A DNA stretch of 64,000 bases from Clostridiales bacterium (GCA_021202015.1 JAJQDV010000032.1:20463-84462), one strand, 5' to 3'. Counted from the first letter of the stretch, positions 1-20,582 are shown. Notes: generated from the letters alone by a model not told the origin. Made by a program: numbers and translations.

Positions 1-4
1 AATT

Positions 5-1003
5 GTGCGCGATACGGTGCGTGAGATCGGTTATACGAACGGTGCGGGCGGCTATGACGCGGAGACGATCGCGGTACTTACTTCTATTGTAGAGCAGTCG
101 GCGGACATTGCCCTCGGCGTGGACCGGGCATATGAGTCAAAGCAGGAGGGCGTCACGGAGGATTACGGCACCGGGGCGGGTGACCAGGGAATCATTTTCG
201 GCTATGCAACGGATGAGACGCCGGAATATCTTCCGCCCGCCATTTCCTTCGCTCATCGTCTGGCACGGCAGCTGGCAAAGGTGAGGAAGGACGGGACGCT
301 TCCTTATCTCAGACCGGATGGAAAAACGCAGGTGACCGTTGAATTCGGGGAGGATGGAAGAACGGTGAAACGGATTCACACGATCGTCATCTCCACACAG
401 CATGAGGAATCCGTGAGTCTGGAGCAGATTCGCAGAGATATCATCGCGTTCGTGGTTCGTCCTGTCATCCCGGCAGAACTTCTGGATGAAGACACGATCT
501 ATTATGTGAATCCGACCGGACGGTTCGTGATCGGCGGCCCGCAGGGAGATGTCGGACTGACCGGCAGGAAGATCATCGTGGATACTTACGGCGGATCCGG
601 CCACCACGGCGGCGGCGCATTTTCGGGAAAGGATCCGACGAAGGTGGATCGCTCCGCGGCCTATGCGGCCAGATGGGTCGCGAAAAATCTGGTAGCTGCG
701 GGAGCGGCAAAGCGTGCGGAAGTGGAACTCGCCTATGCTATCGGTGTGGCAAAACCGGTATCCATATCCGTTGACACCTTCGGAACGGGAATCGTTTCGG
801 ATGAGAAGCTCGCCGGGGTGATTGAAACAGTCTTTGATTTAAGACCGGCAGCCATCATCGACATATTGGAACTGCGCAGACCGATTTATAAGCAGACGGC
901 GGCGTACGGGCATTTCGGCAGGACAGATATCGACCTGCCGTGGGAGCGGACGGACCGGGTGGAAGAAATCCGGAAGGCGCTGGACAGATCGGCCGGTAAA
1001 TAA
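5..1003 (+). CDS. metK: S-adenosylmethionine synthetase (5'-truncated by window edge)
   Basis: MetK motifs [64 protein letters not shown]. Confidence 0.97.
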
Positions 1004-1055
1004 CAGGATCCGGTTTTGAGAACAGACATAATTACAGAAAGGAACAGAGACAGGT

Positions 1056-1931
1056 ATGGCCGAAAAAATCGGAAAACATATAGCAATTTACGGAAAGGGC
1101 GGGATCGGAAAGTCCACGACGACGTCTAATATCAGCGCGGCGCTGGCGGAGGCCGGATACCGGGTCATACAGATCGGATGCGATCCCAAGAGTGATTCGA
1201 CGAACACGCTGCGCGGAAACAATTATTTGCCTACCGTGCTGGACAGTTTGCGCGAAGGAAACAAAATACATCTGGATGATGTGTCAGTGAAAGGATACAG
1301 AGATGTGCTGTGTATCGAATCGGGCGGCCCGGTTCCAGGCGTCGGATGTGCGGGGCGCGGGATCAATGCGGCGGTCAGTCTGCTGCAGGAGCTGAATCTT
1401 TTTGAAGAGTTTAAACCGGATTTTGTCCTGTACGATGTATTGGGCGACGTGGTATGCGGAGGCTTTGCGGTACCGATCCGGGATGGGATCACAGACCGCG
1501 CCTATGTGGTGAGTTCCTCGGATTTCATGGCGGTGTACGCGGCAAACAATCTGTTTAAGGCGATTAATAAATATGCGCCGACAGGCGGTGCGAAACTGGG
1601 CGGAATCATCGCAAACAGTATTACGGCAGGTTATTCGAGGACGATCATCGATGATTTTTCAAAAAAAACCGGGACAGCGGTGGCCGGTTATGTGAACCGC
1701 TCATTGGTGGTTCAGCAGAGTGAACTGTACGGAAAGACAGTGATCGAGGCAAATCCTGAATCCGAACAGGCAGATATTTACCGCAAACTCGCAGCGTATA
1801 TCGCGGAGAACGAGGATCTGGTCGTTCCGAATCCGCTCGGAGTCAGTGAGCTGCGCGACTGGGCCAGAGACTGGGGCGACAAAATATATAATCTGGATGC
1901 CGGTGTGGTTTCCGGAGCGGAAGCAATATGA
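1056..1931 (+). CDS. NifH-like (Group IV nitrogenase-like) Fe protein / ATP-dependent reductase
   Basis: P-loop [34 protein letters not shown] and [13 protein letters not shown]; both [4Fe-4S] Cys ligands are retained. Confidence 0.95.
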
Positions 1932-2025
1932 TGCGGACTGCGGCAAGGCTTTTACAATCTGCGATTCGTGCGTCAGGCGGTGCAAGATGCATAAGTTATT
2001 TCATAAAAGAAAGGTGAACATATGA
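1897..2025 (+). CDS. Candidate 42-aa Cys-rich small protein [42 protein letters not shown] (absent from ORF track)
   Basis: Translated by hand. ATG at 1897, CX6CX2CX3C motif, and its TGA (2023-2025) overlaps the ATG (2022) of the NifD-like gene (ATGA coupling). The RBS is weak. Confidence 0.55.
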
Positions 2026-3428
2026 GTTTGACAGAAAAGAAAGCTCTGACAAGAGAAAAGAGGCTGAGCACCCTCAGCCATTATAACGGTTCTCTGGAGC
2101 AGCTTCGGGGGGATATAAAGGGATCGCAGATTAAACAGAGGATCCGAACGTTTTCCCAGGTTTCTGACGATGAAATCCTGTACGCGATCCGGGTTCTGAG
2201 CCGGATCGGACAATCCGCGATTGTCGTTCACGGGGCGGTGGGCTGCGCCGCTTCCGGGATTTATTTTAACAGTGAACATCCGCTGAACTGGTATTCTACG
2301 AATCTGAACGAGCGCGATACGATACTGGGCGGGGATGAGAAGCTTCGCAGAGCGATCCTCCGCGCTTATGAGGAACAGAATCCGGAGGTGATTTTTGTTA
2401 TCGGAACTCCGGTGGTTGCCATCAATAATGACGATATTAATTCCTGCATTCTGGAACTGGAAGCGGAGCTGGATGTGAAAATCCTGTCCATCTACACAGA
2501 CGGATTCAAGTCCAAAGCGCCGACGACCGGATACGATATCGTGCTTCACGCATTGCTGAACGGTGTGGTGAACAGGGAGAATATCGTGAAAGAAGATATT
2601 ATCAACGTGGTGACTGTGTCAGAGAACCGGGAGGACATTGCGTCGGTTGTAAAAATACTGAGGGATCTGGATATTCCCTACCGGCTTTTACCCCGGTATT
2701 CCACCATAGAAGAAATCCGGAATGCGGGAAACGCAAGGGCGTCCATCTGCCTGGATGCGGATGAGGGCGGTTCTTTTGCGGAGGGTCTCGCGGAGCTGAC
2801 CGGGGTGCCGTACATAAAAACGGACCCGCCGGTGGGTCTTCGGGGAACGAGGCAGTTTATCCGGAAGCTGGCGCAGGCATTGTCCATCGAAGACCGGGCG
2901 TCACAGTATATTGAAGAAAAAGAGGCTGTCGTACAGAAAAAAGTACAGCGGAGAATCTTTGCGGGCAGGAGCGTGTTTCTGGATACGCGGACGTCCCTGG
3001 CGGGAAATCTGGTTGATTTTACAGAGAGTCTCGGCGGACAGGTGGCGGGTCTTGCTGTCACTTATGTCGACCTGAACAATCGCAGCGTGATTGAAAAGCT
3101 GGACAGTCTGGCTAATGCTACGCCTGTGGTGATCGCGAACGGACAGCCTTTTGAAAAGGCAAACGCGTTGTCAAAGGATCATGTGCATTTTTATATCAGT
3201 ACAGAGGGTGATGTGGCTTTTGCGGCAAAGCAGGGAAGTATCCCCGTTTCCCTTTCCGACACAGCGATTCTGGGATATGAGGGGATCGAACAGTTTGCAG
3301 ACCGGATTATCCTCTCGGAAGCTGCCGTTGGGCTCGGGAAATATCTGCAGCAGGATAAGAATCCGTTTTACCGGACTTCCTGGCTGAAAAAAAGCGGCAA
3401 CTGGTATGTGAAGCAGGAGGTGAGGTAA
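2022..3428 (+). CDS. Nitrogenase component-1 family protein, NifD/NifE-like subunit (degenerate Cys pattern)
   Basis: IVVHGAVGC, STNLNERDTILGGDEKL, NNDDI, DGFKS and GYEG motifs of the oxidoreductase/nitrogenase component 1 fold; only 3 Cys in total. Confidence 0.9.
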   Translation: MSLTEKKALTREKRLSTLSHYNGSLEQLRGDIKGSQIKQRIRTFSQVSDDEILYAIRVLSRIGQSAIVVHGAVGCAASGIYFNSEHPLNWYSTNLNERDTILGGDEKLRRAILRAYEEQNPEVIFVIGTPVVAINNDDINSCILELEAELDVKILSIYTDGFKSKAPTTGYDIVLHALLNGVVNRENIVKEDIINVVTVSENREDIASVVKILRDLDIPYRLLPRYSTIEEIRNAGNARASICLDADEGGSFAEGLAELTGVPYIKTDPPVGLRGTRQFIRKLAQALSIEDRASQYIEEKEAVVQKKVQRRIFAGRSVFLDTRTSLAGNLVDFTESLGGQVAGLAVTYVDLNNRSVIEKLDSLANATPVVIANGQPFEKANALSKDHVHFYISTEGDVAFAAKQGSIPVSLSDTAILGYEGIEQFADRIILSEAAVGLGKYLQQDKNPFYRTSWLKKSGNWYVKQEVR

Positions 3429-4765
3429 TGCAGACAGTGATTGAGAATCCCAGAAACGGCTGCGGGATGCATGGCGTGCTCCAGACCGTACAGGAGATCC
3501 GGGGCGTCGTACCCATTGTACACTCGAACGCAGGCTGCGCAGTCTCCAATTATCTGGCAAACCGGGCTTCCGGTTCGGGAAACGGCTATGTCAGCGGCTA
3601 TGACATTCCGGGAACGAATGTACAGGAACGGCATGTGATCTTCGGCGGAGCCTCCCGGCTTCGGGAGCAGATCAAGAACACTCTGAAAGTGGCGGATGGC
3701 AGGCTCTACATTGTACTGAACAGCTGTGAATCCGCCATGGTCGGGGATGATGTGGACGCCATGACCCGGGAAGCGCAGGAACAGCATGAGAGCGTCATCG
3801 ATTCCCTGACGGCGGGTTTTCACGGAGACAGCCATTTCGGATATGAGAGTGTACTGGTGGACATTATCCGACAGCTTCCGACTGTAAGACCTGTTCCGGA
3901 GGAAAACATACCGAACCTTGTAAATGTTTTCGGAATCGTGCCGCAGAAGGATGTCTGTTTTAAGGGAAACCTGGAGGAAATCAGACGGATCCTGGAGGGA
4001 ATCGGCGTAAAGGCCAATATCTTTTTCGGCTTCGAGGACGGGACAGAGGAATTTGCGAAAGCCCCTGCGGCCAGCCTGAATCTGGTCTTTTCAAAATGGG
4101 GAATCCGGGCGGCAAAGGAACTTGAAAAGCTGTACAAAACGCAGTATCTCGTCTTCCCGTACATACCGACCGGAATTCGGGAAGTGCGGGCGTTTGCGGA
4201 GGAGATCCTTGATAAGCTGGCTCTGGATCCGGAACCGGCGGATCGTTTTCTGGAAGAGGAGGAGCGGCAGTTTCGCTATTATCTCAGCGGAATTGCGGAA
4301 AGCTTTTACAGAGAAAATGCGGGAAGACGGATTGCAATCGTGGGCGATGAGAGCGATGTGCGCCGATATTCCTCGTATCTGAGCGAATATCTGGGTGCTG
4401 TCGTAACGGACGCCGTCATCACGGATGATTTTCCGGATGGCGAGACGACACAGAATGAGCGGGCGGAAGCGTTAAAGGACGTCGCCGGGCAGGTTTGTTT
4501 TTCGCAGGACAGCGCGGAAATCGCGAAAATCATAAAAAACAGCGAGGCACAGCTGATTCTGGCCAGCTCGCTGGAGGATGAGGCGGCGGGCAGGAAGGGC
4601 ATCCCGAATCTGGCCGTGTCCTACCCGGTATACGGAAAAGCGATTCTTACAAAAAGTCATGCGGGGATTCACGGAGCACTGACTCTCACTGAGGATTATA
4701 TGACGAAAATCAAAGAGAGCAGTCAGGCGAGGGAAAGGGAACTGGAAGCGTTTCTTATCTCATAG
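3428..4765 (+). CDS. Nitrogenase component-1 family protein, NifK/NifN-like subunit
   Basis: ENPRNGC, HSNAGC, NSCESAMVGDD (three NifK-type Cys) and TNVQERHVIFGGASRL; start overlaps upstream stop (TAATG). Confidence 0.9.
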   Translation: MQTVIENPRNGCGMHGVLQTVQEIRGVVPIVHSNAGCAVSNYLANRASGSGNGYVSGYDIPGTNVQERHVIFGGASRLREQIKNTLKVADGRLYIVLNSCESAMVGDDVDAMTREAQEQHESVIDSLTAGFHGDSHFGYESVLVDIIRQLPTVRPVPEENIPNLVNVFGIVPQKDVCFKGNLEEIRRILEGIGVKANIFFGFEDGTEEFAKAPAASLNLVFSKWGIRAAKELEKLYKTQYLVFPYIPTGIREVRAFAEEILDKLALDPEPADRFLEEEERQFRYYLSGIAESFYRENAGRRIAIVGDESDVRRYSSYLSEYLGAVVTDAVITDDFPDGETTQNERAEALKDVAGQVCFSQDSAEIAKIIKNSEAQLILASSLEDEAAGRKGIPNLAVSYPVYGKAILTKSHAGIHGALTLTEDYMTKIKESSQARERELEAFLIS

Positions 4766-4792
4766 GACGAACTTTCCCATGAGATAAAAAAC
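4746..4792 (-). repeat. Truncated inverted copy (A) of the multi-hairpin element, overlapping the NifK-like stop codon
   Basis: AGCGTTTCTTATCTCATAGGACGAACTTTCCCATGAGATAAAAAA is the reverse complement of the copy B first hairpin with 2 mismatches. Confidence 0.8.
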
Positions 4793-4864
4793 ATAAATCG
4801 CTGCATTCCGGAGCGGGGCAGACGATTCACGCGGAAAAACCTGAGAAATAAGGAAAGAGAGGAA

Positions 4865-5332
4865 ATGAACATGGCCTGGAACAGGGAAGAAATAATAAAC
4901 TACATAAAGGACAGCAGAAGTCTGGTGCTGGCGACCGTGGATGAAAACGGATTCGCGCAGCTGCGGTCAATCGGAGGGTATGGTGCGGATGGTCTGCAGG
5001 TGTATTTCGGCACGGCAAAGACGAGCGGGAAGGTGAAACAGATTGAGCAAAACCCTCATGTCGCCCTGCTTTTTCAGCACGAGGGACAGCAGGTTCCGAA
5101 AAATGTCACGCTGTACGGAACGGCGGCTGTTCTGGGAGAGGAAGAGTTTGAATCCGGGGCAGCGGTGATTCGGGAGAGAAGGCCTCAGATTGCTTTTCAG
5201 AAAGAGGAAAGCAATCTATACAGGGTCGATGTTGAAAAAGTAAAAATACTTGATTTCGGAAGTGAGACGAAGATCAAAGAAGTCCGCGCGGAGGAACTGC
5301 GCCGGACAACGGATTCAGGAGGTTCAAAATGA
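4865..5332 (+). CDS. Pyridoxamine 5'-phosphate oxidase-like FMN-binding split-barrel protein
   Basis: LVLATVDENG..LRSI, YFGTAKTSGKVKQIEQNPHVAL pattern; stop overlaps next start (ATGA). Confidence 0.8.
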   Translation: MNMAWNREEIINYIKDSRSLVLATVDENGFAQLRSIGGYGADGLQVYFGTAKTSGKVKQIEQNPHVALLFQHEGQQVPKNVTLYGTAAVLGEEEFESGAAVIRERRPQIAFQKEESNLYRVDVEKVKILDFGSETKIKEVRAEELRRTTDSGGSK

Positions 5333-6396
5333 TAACGATGAAATGGAAAAGTATGAGCGCATTACTGCTTGCGGGAGTTGTTCTGCTTGCGGGCTGCGGC
5401 AGTTCAGACAGCGGTACAACCGCGGAAAGCGGCGGGGAGGAGGGTACGGTCAGTGTGACGGATGAGACAGCGGGCTCTACGAATGAGGAATTCACGGTAC
5501 GCGTAGGCGTAAATTCAGGAGATCAGAATTCAATTCTGAAAATTGTCGATGAGCATACCGGACTGTTCTCAGATAAAGGAATTCATCTGGAAACAACTGA
5601 ATTTGCTGCGGGAATCAATACGATCGACGCCATAGAGCTGGATCAGGTTGATATCGGACTTTTTGCCGATTATGCGGGAGTAAACAGATTCGGAAACACA
5701 TCCGGCAGCTCAGAGCTTCGTGCATTTACGCAAATGACAAAATCAGATGCATGGGATCTGTATGTCAATCCAGATGCGATTCAGAAACCGGAGGATCTGT
5801 ATGACGCCAGTCTGATTTCGTCTGCGGGTGTTGTATTCGAATATTATTATGCAAGGCTTTTTGAAGTGTATGGGCTGGATATATCAGAGGTAACACTTCA
5901 AAATGTTACAAGCACACAGGAAGCACTGGCGCTGGCGGCTGCCGGAACAGGCGATGCCTATTGGTGCAGTTCACAGACGGCTTCCCTTTTTGAAAAATAC
6001 GGATGGGAACCGTTTGTATCCATAAGTGATATAGATGCAGCCATGTACACATTTATGGTGGCCGGAGAGTCATATCTGACGGAACATAGCGACGAGGTGA
6101 TTCGTTTCCTTGAAGTAAGCGAAGAAGGATTTGAATATATTGCGGAGAATCTGGAGCAGGTTGCTCAGTGGGTAGAGGATGATCTGGGACTTGATCAGGA
6201 GCTGTTTATCAGTGATTGGGAAAGCACGGAACATGTATATGAATTTACCCAGGAAGCCTATGATGATCTGGTCAGTGTCAAGGACTGGTGCTATCAGAAC
6301 GGGAAATTTGATACGGATTTTGATATTTCTGATTTTATCAATACAGATGTATTGAAGCAGATGGATCCGGACAGAGTCACGTATACAGCAGAATAA
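5329..6396 (+). CDS. ABC transporter substrate-binding lipoprotein, SsuA/TauA/NMT1 (sulfonate/nitrate) type
   Basis: Signal peptide with lipobox LLAGC; GLFSDKGIHLETTEFAAGINTIDAIELDQVDIG resembles the SsuA-family N-terminal segment. Confidence 0.8.
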   Translation: MITMKWKSMSALLLAGVVLLAGCGSSDSGTTAESGGEEGTVSVTDETAGSTNEEFTVRVGVNSGDQNSILKIVDEHTGLFSDKGIHLETTEFAAGINTIDAIELDQVDIGLFADYAGVNRFGNTSGSSELRAFTQMTKSDAWDLYVNPDAIQKPEDLYDASLISSAGVVFEYYYARLFEVYGLDISEVTLQNVTSTQEALALAAAGTGDAYWCSSQTASLFEKYGWEPFVSISDIDAAMYTFMVAGESYLTEHSDEVIRFLEVSEEGFEYIAENLEQVAQWVEDDLGLDQELFISDWESTEHVYEFTQEAYDDLVSVKDWCYQNGKFDTDFDISDFINTDVLKQMDPDRVTYTAE

Positions 6397-6443
6397 CCGG
6401 CGCCTTTTGCTTTTCGGAATGATGCGGTGAAGGAGATCAAAGG

Positions 6444-7505
6444 ATGTACATAGAATTAAAGCATATTAATAAAACGTTCGGAAATTTCAAAGCATCTGAC
6501 GATGTGAGTTTTGGAATCGAAAAAGGGAAACTGGTCGCGCTTCTGGGACCGAGCGGAAGCGGAAAGACTACCATCCTGCGCATGATTGCCGGTCTGGAGC
6601 ATCAGGACGACGGAGATATCTGTATTGATGGAAAATGTGTGAACCGCGTGCCGGTGCGGGAACGGGAAATCGGATTTGTGTTTCAGAATTACGCTCTTTT
6701 TCCTTATCTGACGGTATACGACAATATTGCATACGGTTTGAAGGCGAGAAAGAAGGATAAAGCGGCTGTCAGGGAGCGGGTCACAGAACTGTTGGAGCTG
6801 GTGGGTCTTCCGGGACTGGAGAAGCGATATCCGTCCCAGCTCTCCGGCGGTCAGAAGCAGCGGGTGGCCTTTGCCAGGGCACTGGCGCCGCAGCCGCATG
6901 TTCTGCTGCTGGACGAACCGTTTGCCGCTATTGACGCGAAGGTTCGCAAAGAACTTCGGAGCTGGCTGAAGGAGATGATCGGAAAAATCGGCATCACCAG
7001 TATCTTTGTGACCCACGACCAGGACGAGGCCGTGGAGGTGGCTGACGAGATCATTGTGACGAATCTGGGTCGGGTGGAGCAGGTGGGAAAACCGACGGAT
7101 ATCTATAAACATCCGCAGACGCTGTTTGTGGCGCAGTTTATCGGGGAATCCACGTTGCTGACCGATTACGATCGGATCAAAGGGTTTGATATCTATAACG
7201 GAAAGCGAACGGCGATCATCCGGCCGGAATTTGTGAAGGTGATAAAGTATGGGTCAGTAAAGCAGTATGAGAGCCTGTATGCGGAAGGCGTGGTGGAGCA
7301 GATCTCCTTTGGTGGAAATTGCATGGAGCTGCTTGTGAATGTAAACGGTATCCGCATAAAAGCCAGGCAGTCTCTGGAAGAAGAACCTTTCGAAAAAGGA
7401 GAAAAGGTAGAGGTGATTGTATACCGCCTGTATGTGGTGGATGAAAATGAAGCGCATCTTTTGCAGAATAAAGGGATGCAGGAGCAGGGAATGTTTTATA
7501 TTTAG
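6444..7505 (+). CDS. cysA: ABC ATP-binding protein, CysA (sulfate/thiosulfate)-type with C-terminal TOBE-like extension
   Basis: Walker A GPSGSGKT, FVFQNYALF, signature LSGGQKQR, Walker B LLLDEPF, VTHDQDEA, FVAQFIGE; 353 aa. Confidence 0.75.
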   Translation: MYIELKHINKTFGNFKASDDVSFGIEKGKLVALLGPSGSGKTTILRMIAGLEHQDDGDICIDGKCVNRVPVREREIGFVFQNYALFPYLTVYDNIAYGLKARKKDKAAVRERVTELLELVGLPGLEKRYPSQLSGGQKQRVAFARALAPQPHVLLLDEPFAAIDAKVRKELRSWLKEMIGKIGITSIFVTHDQDEAVEVADEIIVTNLGRVEQVGKPTDIYKHPQTLFVAQFIGESTLLTDYDRIKGFDIYNGKRTAIIRPEFVKVIKYGSVKQYESLYAEGVVEQISFGGNCMELLVNVNGIRIKARQSLEEEPFEKGEKVEVIVYRLYVVDENEAHLLQNKGMQEQGMFYI

Positions 7506-7524
7506 AAAAGAAAGGAAGAAAAAA

Positions 7525-8748
7525 ATGTCAGAAGCAATCAGCAGAAAAGAATTTTACAGAGAGGTGGAACTGGGAGAACGGATCGGAAATGATGGCATCG
7601 ATTTCGGGGAAGGCGTGCTGGAAAGTCTGGACTTTGAAAATAAGGTTCAGGAGCAGATCCGGGCATGCTTTGATATGAACCATGAGTCTTACGTAAAGAA
7701 TAGGCTTCCTTCCGGGGTCAGACTGCCCAGCAACTATCGTCTGGGGGTTCCTTATCGAAACGGAGCTCCGTTTCATATTGAACTGGAAGGCGGAAGATAC
7801 CTGCTGTACGATAAAAAGAATTTCCTGTATGAGGTAACTTTTATAGAGAAACCTGCGTTTTACAATAAGAAAACGTCAGATGGCGTGAACATGAGCACCA
7901 TCGCCAATGAGATCGGAAAAACGAAAATCTCAGTGGCGTACAGCAATGAATGCGCGCTGCGTGACAAAGGGCTTGACTGCAAATTCTGCAACATTAACGC
8001 CACAAAAGACCGATTTGCACAGCTGCAGGGAATTGAGTGGAAAAACCCGAAACAGATCGCGGAGACCGTGAAAGAGGCCTATGCGGAGGGGTATCAGAGG
8101 ATTACGATTACCGGCGGATTTATACCGGAGCGCAGGGAAGTGGAATATTACATTGATGTGGCGGAGGAAATCCGTGATCTGACCGGACTGGATGATTTTG
8201 GGGGAACCGCGTGTGTGGGAGCCCCGGCGGATCTGAGCGTGATCGAGAAATATAAAGAGGCCGGATACAGCGCCATCTCTTCCAATATGGAGATCTGGGA
8301 TGAAAATATTTTTAAGACGATCTGCCCGGGGAAAGATCAGATCTGCGGAGGACGGCAGAACTGGATAGAGGCGCTGAAAGAGGAAGTGCGGGTATTCGGG
8401 AAAGGTAATGTGAGATCCTTCTTTGTGGCCGGGATTGAGCCGAAATCCACATTGCTCGAGGGAATTGAGTACCTGGCGTCTCTGGGCGTGGTCGCAATCC
8501 CGCTGCACTGGCTTCCGAATCCGGGATCGGAGCTGGAGGGACATCGGGCGCCCAAAGCGGAATGGTACACGGATCTTTATCAGAAGACATACAACATTTT
8601 AAAGAAAAACGGGCTTACGCATCTGGATCTTTACCGCTCCGCAAATGTAGAAAATTCAATTTTTGATTATCTTTATGATATGGACGGGGATCTTCTCCCG
8701 TTCGAGCGCCACAATGCGGATGCCGTACAATTTCTGCCCGCGGTGTAA
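7525..8748 (+). CDS. Radical SAM enzyme with non-canonical CX8CX2C motif
   Basis: ECALRDKGLDCKFC; ITITGG, SSNMEIWD..FKTICPGK. Start placed at ATG 7525 after an AGGAAG RBS. Confidence 0.85.
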   Translation: MSEAISRKEFYREVELGERIGNDGIDFGEGVLESLDFENKVQEQIRACFDMNHESYVKNRLPSGVRLPSNYRLGVPYRNGAPFHIELEGGRYLLYDKKNFLYEVTFIEKPAFYNKKTSDGVNMSTIANEIGKTKISVAYSNECALRDKGLDCKFCNINATKDRFAQLQGIEWKNPKQIAETVKEAYAEGYQRITITGGFIPERREVEYYIDVAEEIRDLTGLDDFGGTACVGAPADLSVIEKYKEAGYSAISSNMEIWDENIFKTICPGKDQICGGRQNWIEALKEEVRVFGKGNVRSFFVAGIEPKSTLLEGIEYLASLGVVAIPLHWLPNPGSELEGHRAPKAEWYTDLYQKTYNILKKNGLTHLDLYRSANVENSIFDYLYDMDGDLLPFERHNADAVQFLPAV

Positions 8749-8759
8749 GGGAAGCGTAA

Positions 8760-9533
8760 ATGGATATGAAGAAAGACAGGAAGATATTTGACAGAATTTT
8801 AAAATGCGGCGTCGTCACATGGATTCTTCTGGTGTTGATCTGGCAGTTCGGATCACTGTTTTACAGTGATGATTTTCTCCCCGGACCGCTTGTAACACTG
8901 GCAGGAGCAGGGAAACTGGTGGCGAACGGCACTCTGTGGGAGGATATCCTGATCAGTCTGCAGCGTGTATTGAAGGGGTGGATTCTGGGAATCGCGGTTG
9001 CGATTCCCCTGGGATTGTGCATCGGATACTTCAAAAAGGTCGGTTATCTTCTGGAGCCTTTTCTGAATTTTTTCCGCTTTATCCCTGCCATCGGTCTTAT
9101 TACGCTGTTTCTGATGTGGTTCGGTGTGGGAGAAACATCCAAGGTCGCCCTGATTTTTTATGCGGTGATTTTTCCGGTGATGATTAATACGATCGCGGGA
9201 GTTAAGACGGTAGACCCGGCTTTGGTGGAAGCGGCCGAGTCCCTGGGTTCTGCGGATGTCCGGACATTTTTCACTGTGATCGTTCCTTCTGCCGTACCGA
9301 ATATTTTTACGGGAGTACGTCTGGGGCTGAGCAGTGCCATCATATGTATTGTGGCGGCTGAGATGCTGGCCGCGTCGGAAGGACTGGGATATCTGATCTA
9401 TACCTCCAGACTATATTACAGAACAGACTGGATCTTTGTCGGCATTTTCACGCTTGGGATTCTCGGGTTCCTGGCTGACAGACTGCTGCAGTTTCTGGGA
9501 AAAAGGTTTCTGAAAAGATTTGGCGTAAAGTGA
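8760..9533 (+). CDS. ABC permease, SsuC/TauC type
   Basis: ISLQRVLKGW..GI, LEPFLNFFRFIPAIG, EAAESLG (EAA motif), IVAAEMLAASEGLGYLI. Confidence 0.9.
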   Translation: MDMKKDRKIFDRILKCGVVTWILLVLIWQFGSLFYSDDFLPGPLVTLAGAGKLVANGTLWEDILISLQRVLKGWILGIAVAIPLGLCIGYFKKVGYLLEPFLNFFRFIPAIGLITLFLMWFGVGETSKVALIFYAVIFPVMINTIAGVKTVDPALVEAAESLGSADVRTFFTVIVPSAVPNIFTGVRLGLSSAIICIVAAEMLAASEGLGYLIYTSRLYYRTDWIFVGIFTLGILGFLADRLLQFLGKRFLKRFGVK

Positions 9534-9583
9534 GGGAAAATGAGACATAAATAAGCCATCCATCATAATAATCTATAAACCCG

Positions 9584-9616
9584 AAAGGCCTGCAGAAAAA
9601 TATTTGCAGGCCTTTT
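9584..9616 (+). terminator. Intrinsic terminator closing the nitrogenase-like operon
   Basis: AAAGGCCTGCA-loop-TGCAGGCCTTTT inverted repeat with T-run. Confidence 0.7.
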
Positions 9617-9703
9617 GGAAACCGCACAGGTGGAAAATATTCGTGCCTTGATTTACTTTTCTCCTTCGCGTTATAATAAGCAAAAGCGGAAAGAGGTAAT
9701 CCT

Positions 9704-10099
9704 ATGATTTCAACCAAAGGACGTTATGCACTCCGTCTCATGATAGATATTGCCGAACATTCGGACGAAGGCTGTATTCCATTGAAGGACATAGCAGAGC
9801 GCCAGGAGATATCCAAAAAATACCTTGAAATTATTGCGAAGGAGCTGGTAAAAGGTAAGATGATATCCGGCCATGGCGGGCGCGGCGGCGGCTATGTTTT
9901 ATGTCGCCGTCCGGAAGAATACACAGTTGGGGAGATCCTTGAATGGACAGAAGGGTCTCTGGCAACGGTAGCCTGTCTTGCGAAGGATGCGCTCCCCTGC
10001 AGCAGATCCTCTGTTTGCAAAACGCTTCCCCTATGGAAAGAGTTTGACAAAATGACAGTTGATTATTTTTATGGAAAGACGTTGGCTGATCTGCTGTAA
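9704..10099 (+). CDS. Rrf2-family transcriptional regulator (IscR/CymR-like, 3 Cys)
   Basis: MISTKGRYALR, IAERQEISKKYLE, GGRGGGY, C-x7-C-x5-C near the C-terminus. Confidence 0.92.
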   Translation: MISTKGRYALRLMIDIAEHSDEGCIPLKDIAERQEISKKYLEIIAKELVKGKMISGHGGRGGGYVLCRRPEEYTVGEILEWTEGSLATVACLAKDALPCSRSSVCKTLPLWKEFDKMTVDYFYGKTLADLL

Positions 10100-10174
10100 T
10101 CAGTTGACCCTCTGATTTTTCTTTGGCTGCTTCTACAGAGATTACCAGCCTGCTTGTGCAGAAGATCACCAGCC

Positions 10175-10239
10175 TTGACATTGACCTCATTGTAAGTTAT
10201 AATCCCCCTATTCGCCTATACATATAATAGGTGAATAGG
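10175..10239 (+). promoter_or_regulatory. Consensus sigma-A promoter followed by a palindromic operator
   Basis: TTGACA (10175)-17 bp-TATAAT (10198); inverted repeat CCTATTCGCCTAT-N7-ATAGGTGAATAGG directly downstream. Confidence 0.75.
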
Positions 10240-10274
10240 TAAATTGATTTTGCAGAAAAAATGTGAGGTGTGGA

Positions 10275-10805
10275 ATGAAAATGCGCAACAGAAAAATACG
10301 GTTTTTCGCAGGGGTTTTCGCAGCAGCCGCGGTTGTTATGGCCGGTTGTTCTTCCGGTACAGAGCAGGAGGAAACACAGGAACATACATCTGAAGCAGAT
10401 TCGGGCGAAACACAGGAAAATGCATCCGGCACAGCTGAGGACGGAATCGAAATCAATGTAGAAGATATAAGCACCGAGGCCAGCTATTATGATACTGAAA
10501 TTGATGGAACAGATGTCGAAATCTTCGCGGTTCTCGCTTCTGATGGCACAGTTCGTCTTGCAATGAATACCTGCCAGGTTTGCAACGGATCCCCCTATGC
10601 TTATTTTGAACAGGAAGGCGATGATTTTGTCTGCCAGAACTGCGGGAATCACTTTTCATCCGATGAAATCGGGCTTACAGCCGGAGGCTGCAATCCCGTC
10701 CCGATTACGGAGGATGATTACACCGAAGAAAACGGGATCATTACGGTTTCCGACTCTTTTCTGGAAGAAAACGCATATCGTTTTTCCAACTGGAAACAGT
10801 TTTAA
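10275..10805 (+). CDS. DUF2318 (FtrD-like, Cys-rich) lipoprotein
   Basis: Lipobox MAGC; NTCQVC...VCQNCG...GGCNPVP motif. Confidence 0.8.
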   Translation: MKMRNRKIRFFAGVFAAAAVVMAGCSSGTEQEETQEHTSEADSGETQENASGTAEDGIEINVEDISTEASYYDTEIDGTDVEIFAVLASDGTVRLAMNTCQVCNGSPYAYFEQEGDDFVCQNCGNHFSSDEIGLTAGGCNPVPITEDDYTEENGIITVSDSFLEENAYRFSNWKQF

Positions 10806-10818
10806 AGGGGGGACTTAA

Positions 10819-12102
10819 GTGAGTAAGGTTGTTTTTCACGTTACCGGCATGACCTGCTCCGGTTGTGAGCGCCGACTGGAAGGAGCTGTATCAGCACTTC
10901 AAGGCGTACATTCCGTAACTGCGGATTACAGCAGAGGGGAATTAACAGCTGAATTCAATCCTCCCTGCACGGAAAGCGTCATCATTGAAACAATTCAAAA
11001 GACCGGTTACGGAGTTGCGAAAAACGCAAAAAAAGCCCGGGATACGGTGGCTGTTCTGGTTATTATTCTCGGAATCTATGTTATCGCCCGGCAGATGGGA
11101 TGGCTGGAGATATTTCAGAACATCCCGACGATCAGTGAAGAACGAATGAGTTATCTTGCTCTGTTCGCGATTGGCCTGCTGACAAGCGTCCATTGTATTG
11201 CCATGTGCGGAGGATTAAATCTGGCTCAGAGTATTTCTTCCGGAGATATAAAACCCGTGCGTCGCAGTATCTTATACAATCTCGGGCGGCTGACCAGTTA
11301 CACTTTGATCGGCGGTATCCTGGGTTTTATCGGTGAAAAAGCTGCCATTACCTTACAGGTGAGGGGTTTGATCGGTCTGATCGCCGGCGGGGTTATGCTG
11401 CTCATGGGCGTCAATATGCTGGGAGGCCTTTCCCTGTCTGTTCGCCTGTTTCCGAAGCTGTCCGGGAAACTTTCTGCCGGAATACAGAGCGTGGGGAAAC
11501 ATAGTTCCTTTGCGACAGGTCTGGCAAATGGTTTGATGCCCTGCGGGCCGTTGCAGTCCATGCAGATTTACGCAATCGCCAGCGGCAGTATGCTGGCCGG
11601 AGCGCTGTCCATGTTTTCCTTTTGTTCAGGCACGATTCCCCTTGTCTTTGCATTTGGCCTGGCGGCGGGGATGCTGAAAATGCACTGGCGGCAGCGAATG
11701 CTTCAGGTCGGGTCTGTCCTGCTGCTTATCATGGGAATCTTTATGATACAGAACAATCTTGTCCTGACAGGCTTTAATGTCTCATCGACAGTTGCTGAAA
11801 CAGATGGGACTGTCGTTTCAACCATTGATGGAGACGTCCAGTATGTTACTACAGAACTTCATGCCAACGGCTACGACGATATTCAGGTCGTAGCAGGGAT
11901 TCCTGTCATATGGACGATAGATGTTGATGAGAATAATCTGAACGGCTGCAATAATGAGATTGTGTTGTCGGCGTTTGACCAGCAGGTGAAGCTTATCGCA
12001 GGCGAAGTTGTCATAGAGTTTACACCTGAGGAAGAAGGAACATATACATATTCCTGTTGGATGGGAATGTTAAAAAATACGATTACAGTCGTTGAGAATT
12101 AA
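10819..12102 (+). CDS. HMA domain + DsbD_2/TauE-like membrane domain + cupredoxin-like domain protein
   Basis: GMTCSGC HMA motif; GLLTSVHCIAMCGG and GLMPCGPLQ membrane motifs; C-terminal GCNNEI..YSCWMGM. Confidence 0.85.
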   Translation: MSKVVFHVTGMTCSGCERRLEGAVSALQGVHSVTADYSRGELTAEFNPPCTESVIIETIQKTGYGVAKNAKKARDTVAVLVIILGIYVIARQMGWLEIFQNIPTISEERMSYLALFAIGLLTSVHCIAMCGGLNLAQSISSGDIKPVRRSILYNLGRLTSYTLIGGILGFIGEKAAITLQVRGLIGLIAGGVMLLMGVNMLGGLSLSVRLFPKLSGKLSAGIQSVGKHSSFATGLANGLMPCGPLQSMQIYAIASGSMLAGALSMFSFCSGTIPLVFAFGLAAGMLKMHWRQRMLQVGSVLLLIMGIFMIQNNLVLTGFNVSSTVAETDGTVVSTIDGDVQYVTTELHANGYDDIQVVAGIPVIWTIDVDENNLNGCNNEIVLSAFDQQVKLIAGEVVIEFTPEEEGTYTYSCWMGMLKNTITVVEN

Positions 12103-12192
12103 GTTGCAGGAAAGGGATTTGAATTCAGATATATCATGCTTTATTCAGAAATGAACAGTGCCTGTAGGGAAGCCGGGGGAGGGGGTTAGCTG

Positions 12193-12221
12193 TTGACAAA
12201 TGGCAAGTATTAGTATAAAAT
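12193..12221 (+). promoter_or_regulatory. Sigma-A promoter for the gshA-like operon
   Basis: TTGACA-17 bp-TAAAAT. Confidence 0.65.
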
Positions 12222-12300
12222 ACCCTCAATAACATACTAAACATATATGAATGATTAGATATAAAAACGACCGGTAAACCGGATACAGAAGGAGAATACC

Positions 12301-13629
12301 ATGGGTTTTCTGCTGGACGAACGAGAATTAAAAAAATATATTTCCAAAGGGGAGTTCGGACTGGAGAAGGAGAGCCTGCGAGTGGATGCGCAGGGTTACC
12401 TCTCTCATACGCCGCATCCTTTCCCGGGTGACAGCAGGATTGACAGGGATTTCTGTGAGAATCAGGTAGAACTGATTACGGGCGTGAGTGACAGTATTGA
12501 AAAGGTGTGGGCGGAGCTGGCCGGTCTCTATCGCGAGACGGCGGACTGCCTGCTGAAACTGGAAACGGGCAGGGAGTATCTCTGGCCTTTTTCCAACCCT
12601 CCCTATGTCCGCGGCGAGGAGGATATTCCGATTGCGCAATTTTTCGGAAGCCAGACGGGAAAGGGCGTTTACCGGGAATATCTGGCCGGGAAATACGGCA
12701 AGAAAAAAATGCTTTATTCGGGGATACACTATAATTTTTCCTTTTCAGAGGAATTGCTGCGGGCGGATTTTGTCTGCCACAGAGAGAAGAAACCCGTTGA
12801 TCATGGAAAGGATGAAGAGAAGGCATACCGTGACTATAAGGATCGGATATATCTGGAACTTGGTAAGAAAGCCGTCAAATACAGCTGGCTGATCGTTTAT
12901 CTGACAGCGGCGAGTCCTGTCCTGGACGGTTCGTATTATCGGGCCGGCGATCTGGATGAAACGGTGGTCAGCAGTTACGCTTCGCCGCGGTGCAGCGAGA
13001 TCGGCTACTGGAATTCTTTTGTGCCGATTCTGGATTTTACGAGTCTGAACGGTTACGCGGACAGCATCGACGGTTATGTGAAGAACCGGATGATCACCGC
13101 ATCCACGGAGCTTTATTATCCGGTGCGCTTAAAAGCGCGCGGCGCGAATACGACGGATAACCTCCGGAAAAACGGCGTCAGCCATGTGGAACTGCGGATG
13201 CTGGACTTAAATCCGCTCTGCCCGGTGGGAATCCGGCGGCAGGATCTTAAGTTTATCCATCTGCTGCTGGTCTGGCTGATGCTTCAGGAGGATGAGGCAT
13301 TCGGGACGACGGAGCAGACGATCGCGATCCGCAATATGAAGGAGGCGGCGCGTTTTGCACCGGAAGAGATTCAGATCGAGTCCGGCTGGTATCAGATCCG
13401 GCCGGTGCGGGAGGCTGCGGCGGAAATTCTGAATGATATGACAGAGAAGCTGCCGGGATATTTTCCCGGTCAGGAGGCTGCGGTACTGGAGTGCCTGAAT
13501 TCTCAGCTGGAAAAAGCGGAGGATCCGTCGAAACGATATGCGGCGCAGATCCGGGAGCGGTTTCAGAAAGGGTATGTGAAGAAGGGAATGCGGCTGGCGG
13601 TAGAATATGCGAAGGGATTTCAAAATTAG
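12301..13629 (+). CDS. gshA: Glutamate--cysteine ligase (GshA domain, no fused GshB domain)
   Basis: FGLEKESLRV, DFCENQVELIT, WPFSNPP, SGIHYNFSF, ELYYPVRLK, GVSHVELRMLDLNP. Confidence 0.8.
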   Translation: MGFLLDERELKKYISKGEFGLEKESLRVDAQGYLSHTPHPFPGDSRIDRDFCENQVELITGVSDSIEKVWAELAGLYRETADCLLKLETGREYLWPFSNPPYVRGEEDIPIAQFFGSQTGKGVYREYLAGKYGKKKMLYSGIHYNFSFSEELLRADFVCHREKKPVDHGKDEEKAYRDYKDRIYLELGKKAVKYSWLIVYLTAASPVLDGSYYRAGDLDETVVSSYASPRCSEIGYWNSFVPILDFTSLNGYADSIDGYVKNRMITASTELYYPVRLKARGANTTDNLRKNGVSHVELRMLDLNPLCPVGIRRQDLKFIHLLLVWLMLQEDEAFGTTEQTIAIRNMKEAARFAPEEIQIESGWYQIRPVREAAAEILNDMTEKLPGYFPGQEAAVLECLNSQLEKAEDPSKRYAAQIRERFQKGYVKKGMRLAVEYAKGFQN

Positions 13630-13670
13630 GAACAGACCGTGTAATATAGCACTACGAGGTTTATGTTGTC

Positions 13671-14441
13671 ATGTGTGAATTATTTGGCGTATGTGCACGC
13701 CGGCCGGTAGAGTGCCGGGATTATTTAAAAGAGTTTTACCGACACAGCCCTCAGCATCCGAACGGATGGGGGCTGGCAATCCTGGACGGGAACAGTGCGG
13801 CCATTGAGAAAGAACCGTTAGAGGCGGAGAAAAGCAATTATCTTCACGAGCGGCTGACGGTTCCGGTGGAGGGCAGACTGCTTCTGGCGCATATCCGTTA
13901 CGCGACCATCGGGAATGTGGAGTATAAAAACTGCCATCCGTTTTCGGGTGTGGACTGTACCGGACGGCGGTGGACCCTGATCCACAATGGGACGATTTTT
14001 GAGTATGAGCCGCTGCATCGTTATGTGGAGCGCCAGCGTGGTGATACGGACAGCGAAAGGATTTTTCTTTTCCTCATGGATGAGGTGAACAGAAGGACCA
14101 GGTCAGAGGGTAAGCTGGACGCGGAAAAACGTTTTCGGTTGCTGGATGAACTGATCGGCGGCATGGCGACGGGCAATAAGCTGAATCTTCTGATCAGCGA
14201 CGGGGAATGCATGTATGTACATACGAATTATGAGAATTCTCTGCACTTTCGCCAACGGAAAGGGCAGGTGTTTTTTTCCACGGAGCCGCTCGGACGGGAT
14301 GCCTGGGAATGTGTGCCGTTGACTACGCTTCTGGCCTGGCGGAACGGGGAACTTCTGTACACAGGGACAGATCACGGACAGGTATTTGAGGATAATGAGG
14401 AGAATATGAAGTTCCTGTATCAGATTTTCTCGAATTTGTAA
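13671..14441 (+). CDS. Class II glutamine amidotransferase-like (Ntn hydrolase; YafJ/EgtC-like)
   Basis: N-terminal MCELFG (Cys2 nucleophile), HPNGWG, AHIRYATIG, NCHPF, HNGTI, GDTDSE. Confidence 0.88.
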   Translation: MCELFGVCARRPVECRDYLKEFYRHSPQHPNGWGLAILDGNSAAIEKEPLEAEKSNYLHERLTVPVEGRLLLAHIRYATIGNVEYKNCHPFSGVDCTGRRWTLIHNGTIFEYEPLHRYVERQRGDTDSERIFLFLMDEVNRRTRSEGKLDAEKRFRLLDELIGGMATGNKLNLLISDGECMYVHTNYENSLHFRQRKGQVFFSTEPLGRDAWECVPLTTLLAWRNGELLYTGTDHGQVFEDNEENMKFLYQIFSNL

Positions 14442-14489
14442 GGAACTGATAAGATTCATTCTTTAACAGTTCCTGAGGGGAGGTTACCC

Positions 14490-15881
14490 ATGATAGATGA
14501 AAAAACAGTGCGCGAGCACCTGTATCGAAAATATATTGAACCAACAAAAAAGGAACGGGAGCTTTATATCGGCATTGAACTGGAACTGCCCATTGTGAAT
14601 CTGGACAGAAAGGCGGTGGATTTTGCCAATGTCCATCAGGCTGCGCGGGAATTTGTCGAGCATTTTCAGTTTCGCCCGACCGGATGGGATGACGAGGGAA
14701 ATATGTGCGCTGCCGAATGTCCGAAAACAGGGGATATTCTTTCTTTTGACTGTTCTTATAATAACCTGGAGCTTTCTATGGGAAGGGAAAAAGAACTTCA
14801 TACGCTGAATAAACGGTTTTCCGGATATTACCGTTATCTGAATAAGTTGCTGGGGCGTTACCATTACACCCTGACCGGGATGGGGATCAATCCATATCGG
14901 ATTTATAATCATAATGTTCCCATTGAAAACGGGCGATACCGGATGCTTTTTCATCATCTGGGTCTCCGGGATAAATATCAGCAGGAAGAGCCGATGTATT
15001 TTCATGAGTACCCGGCGTTCGGAACATTCTGCAGCGCGTCCCAGGTACAGCTGGATGTGAGTTATGACGATCTGCTGCTGACAGTGAATGTGTTTTCGCG
15101 TCTGGAACCGATCACCGCGCTGCTTTTCGGAAACTCCGTCCTGTTGGGGGAGCATGAGGATCTGCTCTGCAGCCGGGATATGCTCTGGGAAAACAGTTCG
15201 CAGGGAATCAATCCGCACAATATCGGCATGTTTGACTGCCATTTTGATACGGTGGAGGATTTGCTGTCGTACATAGAGTCCACGAGTATCTATTGTGTTG
15301 AGCGCGAGGAAAAATATATTAATTTCCGGCCTATGTGTGTCCGGGATTATTTTCAGAAAGAATCGGTTCAGGGAGAATACTTTGCGGACGGCGGTTATCA
15401 TGAGATCGATGTGATTCCTCAGATTGAGGATCTGGCCTGGCTTCGAACCTTTAAGTTCGAGGATCTGACATTTCGCGGAACGGTCGAGTTTCGGAGCGCG
15501 TGCTGCCAGCCGGTTTCCGACAGTATGGCGGTCGCGGCTTTTTACGTGGGACTGAAGGAAAAGCTGTCGGAGCTGTCCGGGATTCTGGCAAATGACCGCG
15601 TGATCTATCACCATGGCTATAACCAGATGGAGCTGCGGAAACTCTTTGTGAAGAGAGAATTGCCGGGGTTTGTGGATGCCGACAGCCTCTATCGTCTGAC
15701 CGGCCGGATTGTGAAGCTGGCCGAAGAAGGACTGCGGGAGAGAGGGTTTGGCGAGGAGTGTTATCTTAGGCCTTTGTATGGCCGCGTAAAATCGAGAGAA
15801 AATCCGGCCATGCGGATGCTGAGGGAGCGTGACGCGGGGCGCAGCATAGAAGAGATTATTCTGGAATATCGGGAATTGTGA
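14490..15881 (+). CDS. GCS2-family glutamate--cysteine/amine ligase (EgtA-like)
   Basis: IGIELELP, NNLELS, GMGINP, SASQVQLD, RGTVEFRS..Q. Confidence 0.8.
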   Translation: MIDEKTVREHLYRKYIEPTKKERELYIGIELELPIVNLDRKAVDFANVHQAAREFVEHFQFRPTGWDDEGNMCAAECPKTGDILSFDCSYNNLELSMGREKELHTLNKRFSGYYRYLNKLLGRYHYTLTGMGINPYRIYNHNVPIENGRYRMLFHHLGLRDKYQQEEPMYFHEYPAFGTFCSASQVQLDVSYDDLLLTVNVFSRLEPITALLFGNSVLLGEHEDLLCSRDMLWENSSQGINPHNIGMFDCHFDTVEDLLSYIESTSIYCVEREEKYINFRPMCVRDYFQKESVQGEYFADGGYHEIDVIPQIEDLAWLRTFKFEDLTFRGTVEFRSACCQPVSDSMAVAAFYVGLKEKLSELSGILANDRVIYHHGYNQMELRKLFVKRELPGFVDADSLYRLTGRIVKLAEEGLRERGFGEECYLRPLYGRVKSRENPAMRMLRERDAGRSIEEIILEYREL

Positions 15882-15894
15882 GCGCAGGCGGAGT

Positions 15895-16767
15895 TTAGGA
15901 TTCGATCACCTCCCGAATCATATCAATGAAAACTTTAATCAACGGTGTAAGCTGATATTTTTTATAAAACATACCATAGGAGAGATGCTCCGCGCCCTGT
16001 AACGGCACATATTTCACACCGGCGTTATAGTAGTCAATTTTTGGCGCTATGGTAAAACCGTAACCCGCACGTATCATAAATAATGCTGCCTGCAGATTTT
16101 CACACATATACGTTTTTTCAATCAGAATATGTGATGCAGCCTGTTCCTGCATAACAACCGCTTTTGACGGAACTTCTTTACAGAGAATGATGCTTTCTGA
16201 ATAAAGCTCGGATTCGAGGATGGATTCACGGCTTGAATATGGATGCGATTCGGGAAAAACACAACAGAGCGGAACCTTATCCAGCTCTTTATAAACCATG
16301 CCGCCGCGAAGCGGAATATCATCTTTGAATCCGAAAAGTATATCAATGTCCCCCTGTGAAAACAATGACAAAATAGAGCGGTGAGGGATGATTTTCAAAA
16401 AAGGATGAATCTCGGGAAGCCGCTTTTTTGATTCTTCTAAAATAATATACAGAAAATCCAGATCAACCTCGTTCCCGCATCCGATCGTTATGACCTGTAT
16501 ATTTGTCTCTGTGTGCTGATGGATTTTGGCGGTAGCGGTGCGGAGAGTCATCATAATTTTTTTTGTATCTTCTAAAAAGCTGAGTCCGGCCGGCGTGAGC
16601 GTTACCGCTCTGGTTGTTCGCAGTAAAAGCTGAACACCAAGTTCTTCCTCAAGCGCACGAATCTGGCGCGATACATTGGACTGCGTCATGTTCAGGACCT
16701 CGGCAGCTCTTGCAAAGTTGAGATTTTCAGCAACCTGTATGAAGGTTTCTAATTGTTGAATGTTCAA
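15895..16767 (-). CDS. LysR-family transcriptional regulator
   Basis: MNIQQLETFIQVAENLNFARAAEVLNMTQSNVSRQIRALEEELGVQLLLRT HTH; TTG start; divergent from the MATE gene. Confidence 0.95.
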   Translation of the reverse strand: MNIQQLETFIQVAENLNFARAAEVLNMTQSNVSRQIRALEEELGVQLLLRTTRAVTLTPAGLSFLEDTKKIMMTLRTATAKIHQHTETNIQVITIGCGNEVDLDFLYIILEESKKRLPEIHPFLKIIPHRSILSLFSQGDIDILFGFKDDIPLRGGMVYKELDKVPLCCVFPESHPYSSRESILESELYSESIILCKEVPSKAVVMQEQAASHILIEKTYMCENLQAALFMIRAGYGFTIAPKIDYYNAGVKYVPLQGAEHLSYGMFYKKYQLTPLIKVFIDMIREVIES

Positions 16768-16878
16768 TTTTTTTACCTCGATTATTGCAATTTTCTCATT
16801 AACGATACCATATATTCATGTATGAATCAAGAAATCCTGTGCTATAATTCCTGCGAATTGCAACAGGAGGTATTACAT

Positions 16879-18237: not shown

Positions 18238-18254
18238 GGAAAGGACGATGAAAA

Positions 18255-20314: not shown

Positions 20315-20324
20315 AAGGAATGGA

Positions 20325-20579: not shown

Positions 20580-20582
20580 ATT

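Follow-up and report, generated by a model that had tools for sequence, protein, structure and literature searches.

Nitrogenase-like enzymes have been tied to the cleavage of C-S bonds in two systems, Mar and Isr, with which we compare an operon at positions 1 to 10099 of a 64,000-nt stretch of DNA from a Clostridiales bacterium (GCA_021202015.1 JAJQDV010000032.1:20463-84462; the whole stretch is called the window below). MarBHDK of Rhodospirillum rubrum (Group IV-C; PDB 9FMG) carries out ATP-driven C-S cleavage for sulfur acquisition and has a full P-cluster, an [Fe8S9C] cluster held by Cys270 and His429, and a true NifB-like protein, MarB. Isr (isethionate reductase), described in 2024 as releasing sulfur from organosulfonates anaerobically, is only the second nitrogenase-like enzyme tied to this type of reaction; it has been studied genetically in one phototroph, and the family was named Group IV-F in a 2026 Chem Rev review (PMC13474568). 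IsrD is defined by the retention of one of the three P-cluster cysteines of NifD (the equivalent of Cys88), with Arg at the position of Cys62 and Pro or Ser at that of Cys154, and by the absence of ligands of the iron-molybdenum cofactor (FeMo-co), and IsrK of Rhodobacter capsulatus keeps all three NifK P-cluster cysteines as Cys12, Cys37, and Cys99 (Morimoto et al. 2024, PMC11423573). IsrB consists of a radical S-adenosylmethionine (SAM) domain only, has little in common with NifB beyond the radical SAM motif, and has BciD as its closest Swiss-Prot relative (PMC11423573; PMC13474568). Isethionate is the only experimental substrate precedent for Isr (PMC11423573). Members of the family in Firmicutes and in the gut were predicted by Morimoto et al. 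2024, and the Isr carriers in their Table S9 include Pseudobutyrivibrio ruminis DSM 9787 (PMC11423573).

We consider it likely that the window holds an Isr-type (Group IV-F) organosulfonate desulfonation operon, composed of metK, isrH, isrD, and isrK plus a cassette, and closed by an intrinsic terminator. Membership of the locus in the Isr family is shown by sequence signatures. With the system of R. capsulatus (IsrBHDK and SsuCAB; PMC11423573, PMC13474568), it shares the H/D/K trio, the arrangement of one plus three cysteines without L-cluster or FeMo-co ligands, a radical SAM partner that belongs to NF045502 and is not NifB, an SsuA/SsuC-type ATP-binding cassette (ABC) importer, and a sulfur-assimilation context. 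Unlike in R. capsulatus, metK heads the operon and a PNPOx flavoprotein is included, the B gene lies downstream inside the transporter cassette rather than upstream of H, and the ATPase is CysA/PotA-like with a TOBE domain rather than SsuB-like. Gene calls in 1-10099 were based on an open reading frame (ORF) listing and on Pfam and NCBIfam profiles, and all ten genes are carried by the + strand. The features of the window are as follows.

2-1003, + strand: metK (SAM synthetase), 5' end cut by the window edge (Pfam S-AdoMet_synt_C/M/N)
1056-1931, + strand: isrH-like Fe-protein, a NifH family ATPase (Fer4_NifH, 310 bits)
1932-2021, no strand: H-D spacer of 90 bp, not conserved (alignment of relatives)
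2022-3428, + strand: isrD-like catalytic subunit (Oxidored_nitro)
3428-4765, + strand: isrK-like catalytic subunit, its start overlapping the stop codon of D (Oxidored_nitro)
4764-9526, + strand: cassette of 4.76 kb between isrK and the terminator, absent at this position in the nearest genome locus, L001 (blastn)
4865-5332, + strand: PNPOx-like (FMN split-barrel) flavoprotein (PNPOx_N, 52 bits)
5329-6396, + strand: SsuA/NMT1-family substrate-binding lipoprotein, substrate-binding protein (SBP) clade 1 (NMT1, 36.5 bits; lipobox LLAGC)
6444-7505, + strand: ABC ATPase with a C-terminal TOBE domain, CysA/PotA-like (ABC_tran and TOBE_2)
7525-8748, + strand: isrB-like radical SAM enzyme (NF045502, 450 bits)
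8760-9533, + strand: SsuC/TauC-like ABC permease (BPD_transp_1, 97 bits)
9581-9618, + strand: intrinsic terminator closing the operon (16-bp stem, then UUUU)
9648-9677, + strand: promoter-like site (TTGATT-18-TATAAT)
9704-10099, + strand: Rrf2-family regulator (Rrf2, 105 bits)
19067-22431, + strand: cluster of MetY-like, TusA, thioredoxin, ThiF, and JAB genes (Pfam)

We analyzed the sequences of the three nitrogenase-like proteins. D carries the Isr pattern, with Cys75 kept and the other two P-cluster cysteines replaced by Arg (in QRIRTFSQ) and by Pro130 (in TPVVAINN); the ligands of FeMo-co and of the L-cluster (NifD Cys275/His442; MarD Cys270/His429) are absent, and a Glu occupies the position of MarD His429. 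Cys12, Cys37, and Cys100 of K align with the P-cluster cysteines of MarK and NifK and match IsrK Cys12/37/99. H contains a GKGGIGKS P-loop together with Cys98 and Cys134, which were read from the sequence and correspond to IsrH Cys99/Cys135. H is 69% identical to IsrH, and K 37% identical to IsrK, of Rhodovulum strictum. Cys243 of D was rejected as a Cys275-type cluster ligand, since it is shifted by two residues in the alignment and lacks conservation across the family.

The H protein also scores 334 bits with the CfbC model and 374 bits with nifH, as might be expected of a tetrapyrrole or cofactor reductase (Cfb/Bch-like) or of a nitrogenase. These scores are below the curated cut-offs, as are those of H with BchL and BchX, and all nif equivalog scores fall far below cut-off, the Cfb/Bch tetrapyrrole models likewise staying below theirs. 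Moreover, a K subunit is present at the locus, whereas Cfb has none; the ligands of FeMo-co and of the P-cluster are missing; neither tetrapyrrole nor nif accessory genes are found; and a sulfur-metabolism neighborhood recurs across a comparative set of 81 loci (80 GTDB species loci and that of R. strictum, with all predicted proteins clustered). We therefore give these two identities almost no credence. A preliminary description of this DNA had already held that the operon does not serve nitrogen fixation, and the absence of the NifD ligands, of a full P-cluster, and of nifB/E/N, together with the low nif scores, bears this out; the affinity to Cfb/Bch that it had named as a possible refutation was not found, all tetrapyrrole models being below cut-off.

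The position of D was evaluated with an alignment of 96 representatives drawn from a search of 1.84 billion proteins. The Isr-type pattern occurs in about 60 of the 96, and the remaining 40 carry Mar/Nif-type cysteines. In neighbor-joining trees, built from sequences that do not include R. capsulatus itself, the exact-clade bootstrap of the whole Isr-like D clade was 20/50, with a few borderline representatives moving in and out. The split between window D and all 40 Cys154-type (Mar-like) sequences, a question asked after that result, was recovered in 60/60 bootstraps. Eight D sequences from species named as Isr carriers fall on the window's side of this split, among them those of P. ruminis, Anaerocolumna sedimenticola, C. 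chromiireducens, Paenibacillus durus, Propionispora vibrioides, Rhodovastum atsumiense, and R. strictum. Window D is 48-50% identical to the proteins of P. ruminis, 41% to that of A. sedimenticola, and 35-41% to those of three Clostridium species, all listed as Isr species in the paper. Judged by these sequences, the D, K, and H proteins of the locus belong to the Isr family of Group IV-F.

The radical SAM gene of the operon is likewise, by sequence comparison, an isrB homologue. Its start is most likely ATG 7525, from which homologues align, and its product scores 450 bits with NF045502, for which R. strictum IsrB scores 426 bits; the full-length identity of the two proteins is 44%, and the R. 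strictum locus (L081) has the order isrB-H-D-K. The protein contains the motif C143-x8-C152-x2-C155 and an invariant C267, corresponding to the family's variant motif C-x8-C-x2-C and to the Cys in CPGK. No sequence match was found in the PDB, NifB included. An AlphaFold2 (AF2) model (predicted local distance difference test score [pLDDT], 94) has HydE, LipA, BioB, PylB, and ThiH as best folds, and the NifB fold is absent from its top 50 Foldseek matches. With the HydE/BioB/LipA/PylB/ThiH group, the model shares a TIM-barrel core (Foldseek E ~5e-8, TM 0.44-0.5), and NCBIfam gives weak matches to CofH, BioB, and MqnC/E. Unlike this group, to which sequence identity is only 13-19%, window IsrB has an extra N-terminal beta-rich domain of ~130 residues and a Cx8Cx2C rather than a Cx3Cx2C cluster motif, and IsrB-like proteins are always found with nitrogenase-like HDK.

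Many proteins of the IsrB family, P0414, P0417, P0433, and P0483 among them, are publicly labeled "nitrogen fixation protein NifB," and D and K homologues are labeled "nitrogenase molybdenum-iron protein." These labels are annotation errors. Such records can cause nitrogen fixation to be overpredicted in gut metagenomes and could mislead surveys of diazotrophy.

The preliminary description had proposed that the locus represents a new clade of Group IV, distinct from Mar and from Isr and without a NifB-type partner. No NifB, NifE, or NifN domain is encoded at the locus, and D is only 26% identical to proteobacterial IsrD, in line with that proposal. Against it stand the Isr-specific cysteine pattern of D and K, the 60/60 split from Cys154-type sequences and the grouping with the 8 named Isr D sequences, and the earlier listing, among Isr carriers, of P. 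ruminis DSM 9787, whose locus contains the same genes. The operon also encodes a "B" partner, the IsrB homologue, which had gone unrecognized when the operon was described as NifB-independent. A NifB-like maturase had further been ascribed to Isr, which is incorrect: IsrB has no domain other than radical SAM and is unrelated to NifB. Since Isr itself works without a NifB-like protein, "NifB-independent" is no distinction for this locus. In the D trees, window D falls among Isr-designated sequences. We thus regard a new clade as very improbable, and the claimed novelty is not supported: by its sequence features, the locus is an ordinary Isr member in a gut Clostridiales.

A Mar-like thioether (methylthio-alkane) reductase, the methanethiol from which would be converted into methionine by a MetY-type sulfhydrylase and then into SAM by MetK, is a somewhat less remote yet still improbable alternative. 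MarD (E 2e-35) and MarK (E 2e-58; PDB 9FMG) are the nearest solved structures by sequence, as fits Group IV, metK belongs to the operon, a MetY-like gene lies 9.5 kb downstream, and MetY recurs beside HDK in some loci. However, D has neither two of the three P-cluster cysteines nor the Cys270/His429 L-cluster ligands. The only radical SAM gene is of the IsrB type and, unlike MarB, its product is unrelated to NifB. Finally, the importers are of the SsuA/TauC sulfonate type, and sulfite reductases recur in homologous loci.

Several points weigh against the assignment to an Isr-type desulfonation operon. The reference Isr proteins are those of R. strictum, an Isr carrier in Table S9 that served as a proxy for R. 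capsulatus. The low identity (26%) of window D to R. strictum IsrD amounts to a raw-score distance about that to MarD, which leaves signature residues and the tree as the basis for its placement. Window IsrB belongs to a subclade of 15 members (95/100 bootstrap) that does not include R. strictum IsrB. The 64-kb window yielded no sulfite reductase. In R. capsulatus, the reaction products of Isr and the role of IsrB are still unverified (PMC11423573). Among public sequencing runs, no RNA run containing the locus was found, and only one run has related sequence, in the form of contigs.

We propose a function for the Isr-type operon by analogy with IsrBHDK/SsuCAB of R. capsulatus. The ABC transporter would import an organosulfonate, and the IsrH dimer would hydrolyze ATP and pass low-potential electrons to a [4Fe-4S] cluster of IsrDK, with one Cys from D and three from K as its predicted ligands. 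The C-S bond would then be cleaved together with IsrB, and the sulfite released would be reduced and built into Cys and Met. MetK most likely supplies the SAM consumed by IsrB, as suggested by its linkage to HDK and by the co-occurrence of a methylthioadenosine/S-adenosylhomocysteine (MTA/SAH) nucleosidase. From its linkage, we infer that the nucleosidase removes 5'-deoxyadenosine, which would fit IsrB using SAM as a co-substrate and not acting once as a maturase. Since window IsrB and the binding protein form their own subclade, separate from Rhodobacteraceae, a sulfonate other than isethionate is a plausible candidate substrate.

The anatomy of the operon largely agrees with the preliminary description. 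Its gene content and order were confirmed, as was the gap of 52 bp between metK and H (71 bp is given in the blastn comparison with L001), in which the terminator scan revealed no terminator-like site; the other junctions are overlapping or at most 99 bp. The absence of nifB/E/N, nifU/S, and PII genes also holds, none of these domains being present in 1-10099. Co-transcription from metK to the permease gene is inferred from this arrangement. Two points had to be revised. A small Cys ORF (1846-2025) running through the H-D spacer was not accepted as a gene: L002 and L003, the closest relatives after the sister strain L001, lack the spacer, and a 1-bp indel shifts its frame in L001 itself. In most loci, no gap separates H from D, or the two overlap. 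Rrf2 had been counted within the operon, and the sequence instead indicates a separate transcription unit, as it is preceded by the strong terminator at 9581-9618 (-27.9 kcal/mol; z = -8.9 versus shuffles; overlooked by the consensus scan) and by its own promoter-like site at 9648-9677. The Rrf2 protein matches the IscR and CymR models, both below cut-off, and an Rrf2 gene is near HDK in only 7/81 loci.

Riboswitch control of the operon was rejected, as Rfam gave no match to an S-box, a T-box, or any other riboswitch in positions 1-20000 of the window (E <= 1) or upstream of metK in seven related loci (gathering threshold). In two Pseudobutyrivibrio genomes, a weak tRNA-model match of 36-38 bits (L024, 7469-7539; L026, 7475-7545) sits ~200 bp upstream of the Isr-linked metK.

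We then compared the window with the nearest genome locus, L001, from a Clostridiales metagenome-assembled genome (MAG; MI.B10_7), the D protein of which is 99% identical to window D. The blastn identity of the DNA is 95.5% for HDK, 92.6% for metK, and 91.9% for the Rrf2 region. Homology in the HDK region stops at 4763 and resumes at 9527, where L001 has 24 bp in place of the cassette. L001 has its own cassette of 4.7 kb between metK and H, coding for an IsrB, a permease, an ATPase, an SBP, and a short-chain dehydrogenase/reductase (SDR), and its terminator directly follows K. Window and L001 IsrB are only 44% identical, and the comparison therefore shows that nearly identical HDK works with very different IsrB proteins. 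By this alignment, the radical-SAM and transporter module is swapped between near-identical strains. No recombination repeats were seen at the metK/H junction among the cassette borders.

A ~70-nt element, composed of a conserved 30-nt prefix (AATAAGCCATCCATCATAATAATCTATAAA) and then the terminator hairpin, is found once in the window (9550-9618) and twice in L001 (87-169 and about 12776-12856), where one copy directly follows isrK and the other is upstream of a LacI-family gene. The element may simply represent repeated use of one terminator, or it may be a small repeat that takes part in the rearrangements. A strain that is ~94% identical is represented in one public sequencing run (X1), which was compared with positions 1-12000 of the window. 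One of its contigs runs across the direct metK-H junction (602-1541), and the 4.8-9.5 kb cassette is hardly covered, a pattern consistent with further cassette variation among strains.

The proteins of the window cassette were then evaluated. The binding protein matches TIGR01728 (57.6 bits, below cut-off) and has no sequence match in the PDB. The ATPase scores 358 bits with TIGR00968 (sulfate ABC ATPase), above the cut-off of 342.75, and the permease matches the SaoP, TauC, and SsuC models, all below their cut-offs, and is 37% identical to the SsuC-like permease of R. strictum. The 15 window-type IsrB proteins are 54-100% identical to each other and 40-51% to the remaining IsrB proteins. SBP clade 1 is the nearest SBP for 11/15 of their genes, the other 4 having no SBP within range, and PNPOx flavoprotein genes are near 10/15. 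The same cassette type in Pseudobutyrivibrio, where P. ruminis and P. xylanivorans have it, contains a short SsuB-like ATPase, which gives only ~150-155 bits versus the window ATPase (6444-7505). This suggests that the long CysA/PotA-type ATPase is a component replacement within an otherwise orthologous, differently ordered cassette.

Other IsrB subclades pair with SBP0 and the nucleosidase, with SBP2 and MatE, or with SBP3 and SDR. Over 73 cassettes, the identity of IsrB proteins correlates with that of the adjacent SBP (r 0.69; partial r 0.64 given D; 0/500 Mantel permutations) and with D identity at an r of only 0.33. Linkage alone contributes to the IsrB-SBP correlation, which therefore shows that cassettes move as units and does not by itself show specificity.

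Evaluation of the 81 loci revealed that their hosts are chiefly Lachnospiraceae/Clostridiales and Treponema MAGs from rumen and gut, with Clostridium, Anaerocolumna, termite-gut "Azoarcus" MAGs, and others also represented. Besides HDK, the recurrent families are IsrB-like radical SAM (93 genes in 64 loci), SsuA-like binding protein (88 in 61), ABC ATPase (84 in 62), permease (65 in 57), MetK (54 in 53), and MatE (23 in 20); MTA/SAH nucleosidase (TIGR01704, above cut-off; 27 loci), PNPOx flavoprotein (21 loci), JAB (14 loci), small sulfite-reductase-like protein and ThiF (11 loci each), SDR (10 loci), MetY (7 loci), and CysK (6 loci); and arylsulfotransferase (6 genes in 5 loci). In the 42 full-flank loci, those that extend 8 kb or more to either side of HDK, metK is at most 10 kb from HDK in 34/42, in several gene orders, at least one IsrB is present in 37/42, and the MTA/SAH (5'-deoxyadenosine-type) nucleosidase is present in 18/42. 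The locus of P. ruminis DSM 9787 (L029), MetK-H-D-K-rSAM-SBP-Perm-ATP-Flv, has the same parts as the window. The family is thus frequent among Lachnospiraceae/Clostridiales of the rumen and gut and in Treponema, where a metK-HDK core is combined with swappable IsrB-transporter cassettes. The neighborhood survey suggested in the preliminary description supports its view of anaerobic sulfur scavenging by a Group IV nitrogenase-like system tied to Met/SAM, as metK and sulfur genes (sulfite reductase, ThiF/JAB, MetY, and CysK) recur near HDK. The sulfur-assimilation reading is well supported by this gene context.

We further propose, as a tentative extension to which we give less than even weight, that IsrHDK is a constant, shared ATP-driven reductase core and that IsrB paralogues, each with its own SBP/ABC importer and a small oxidoreductase, are interchangeable substrate-specific parts. 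If IsrB is such a part, it would therefore be a SAM-consuming catalytic partner and not a cluster maturase. Compatible with this proposal, one HDK set stands beside 2-3 IsrB cassettes in 15/42 full-flank loci, IsrB identity follows that of the adjacent SBP far more than that of D, the near-identical HDK of the window and of L001 stands with dissimilar IsrB proteins, and the linkage to metK and to the nucleosidase would fit a stoichiometric turnover of SAM. If cassettes set the substrate range, a single reductase could let gut anaerobes use several sulfonates as sulfur sources, with diet-, bile-, or sulfoquinovose-derived compounds as candidates, and the natural swaps would give a direct handle on the action of IsrB. 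The conserved metK/nucleosidase linkage and the swappable cassettes on a constant HDK core go beyond the Isr literature, neither being mentioned in PMC11423573 or PMC13474568, and they make the question of the role of IsrB directly testable.

Additional observations concern the surroundings of Isr loci. The Isr-linked MetK proteins of three Treponema MAGs (L016, L028, and L042) are ~82% identical to that of Pseudobutyrivibrio L024, with D proteins at ~50%. Such likeness is high for two phyla and suggests either that an island including metK moved horizontally or that contigs were mis-binned. Arylsulfotransferase (ASST) genes lie beside Isr cassettes in L029, L049, L061, L071, and L074, a hint that aryl sulfates or sulfonate esters may be the substrates there.

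The families of the MetY-TusA-thioredoxin-ThiF-JAB cluster of the window (19067-22431) also adjoin HDK in other loci. This set resembles protein-thiocarboxylate-dependent homocysteine synthesis, as in the Wolinella HcyS system, and a 300-bp gap at 20900-21197 is a possible place for a ThiS-like carrier. Just after Rrf2, a perfect sigma-70 consensus (TTGACA-17-TATAAT) at 10175-10203 is followed by genes for a Cys-rich FtrD-like lipoprotein (10263-10805) and an HMA-DsbD_2 fusion membrane protein (10819-12102), a pair that may form a metal or thiol-redox unit under Rrf2 control. Downstream, a near-consensus promoter at 12193 precedes a row of three genes (12301-15881) coding for a glutamate-cysteine-ligase-like protein, a class-II glutamine amidotransferase (GATase_4), and a 463-aa protein without a Pfam match, which possibly belong to a low-molecular-weight thiol pathway.

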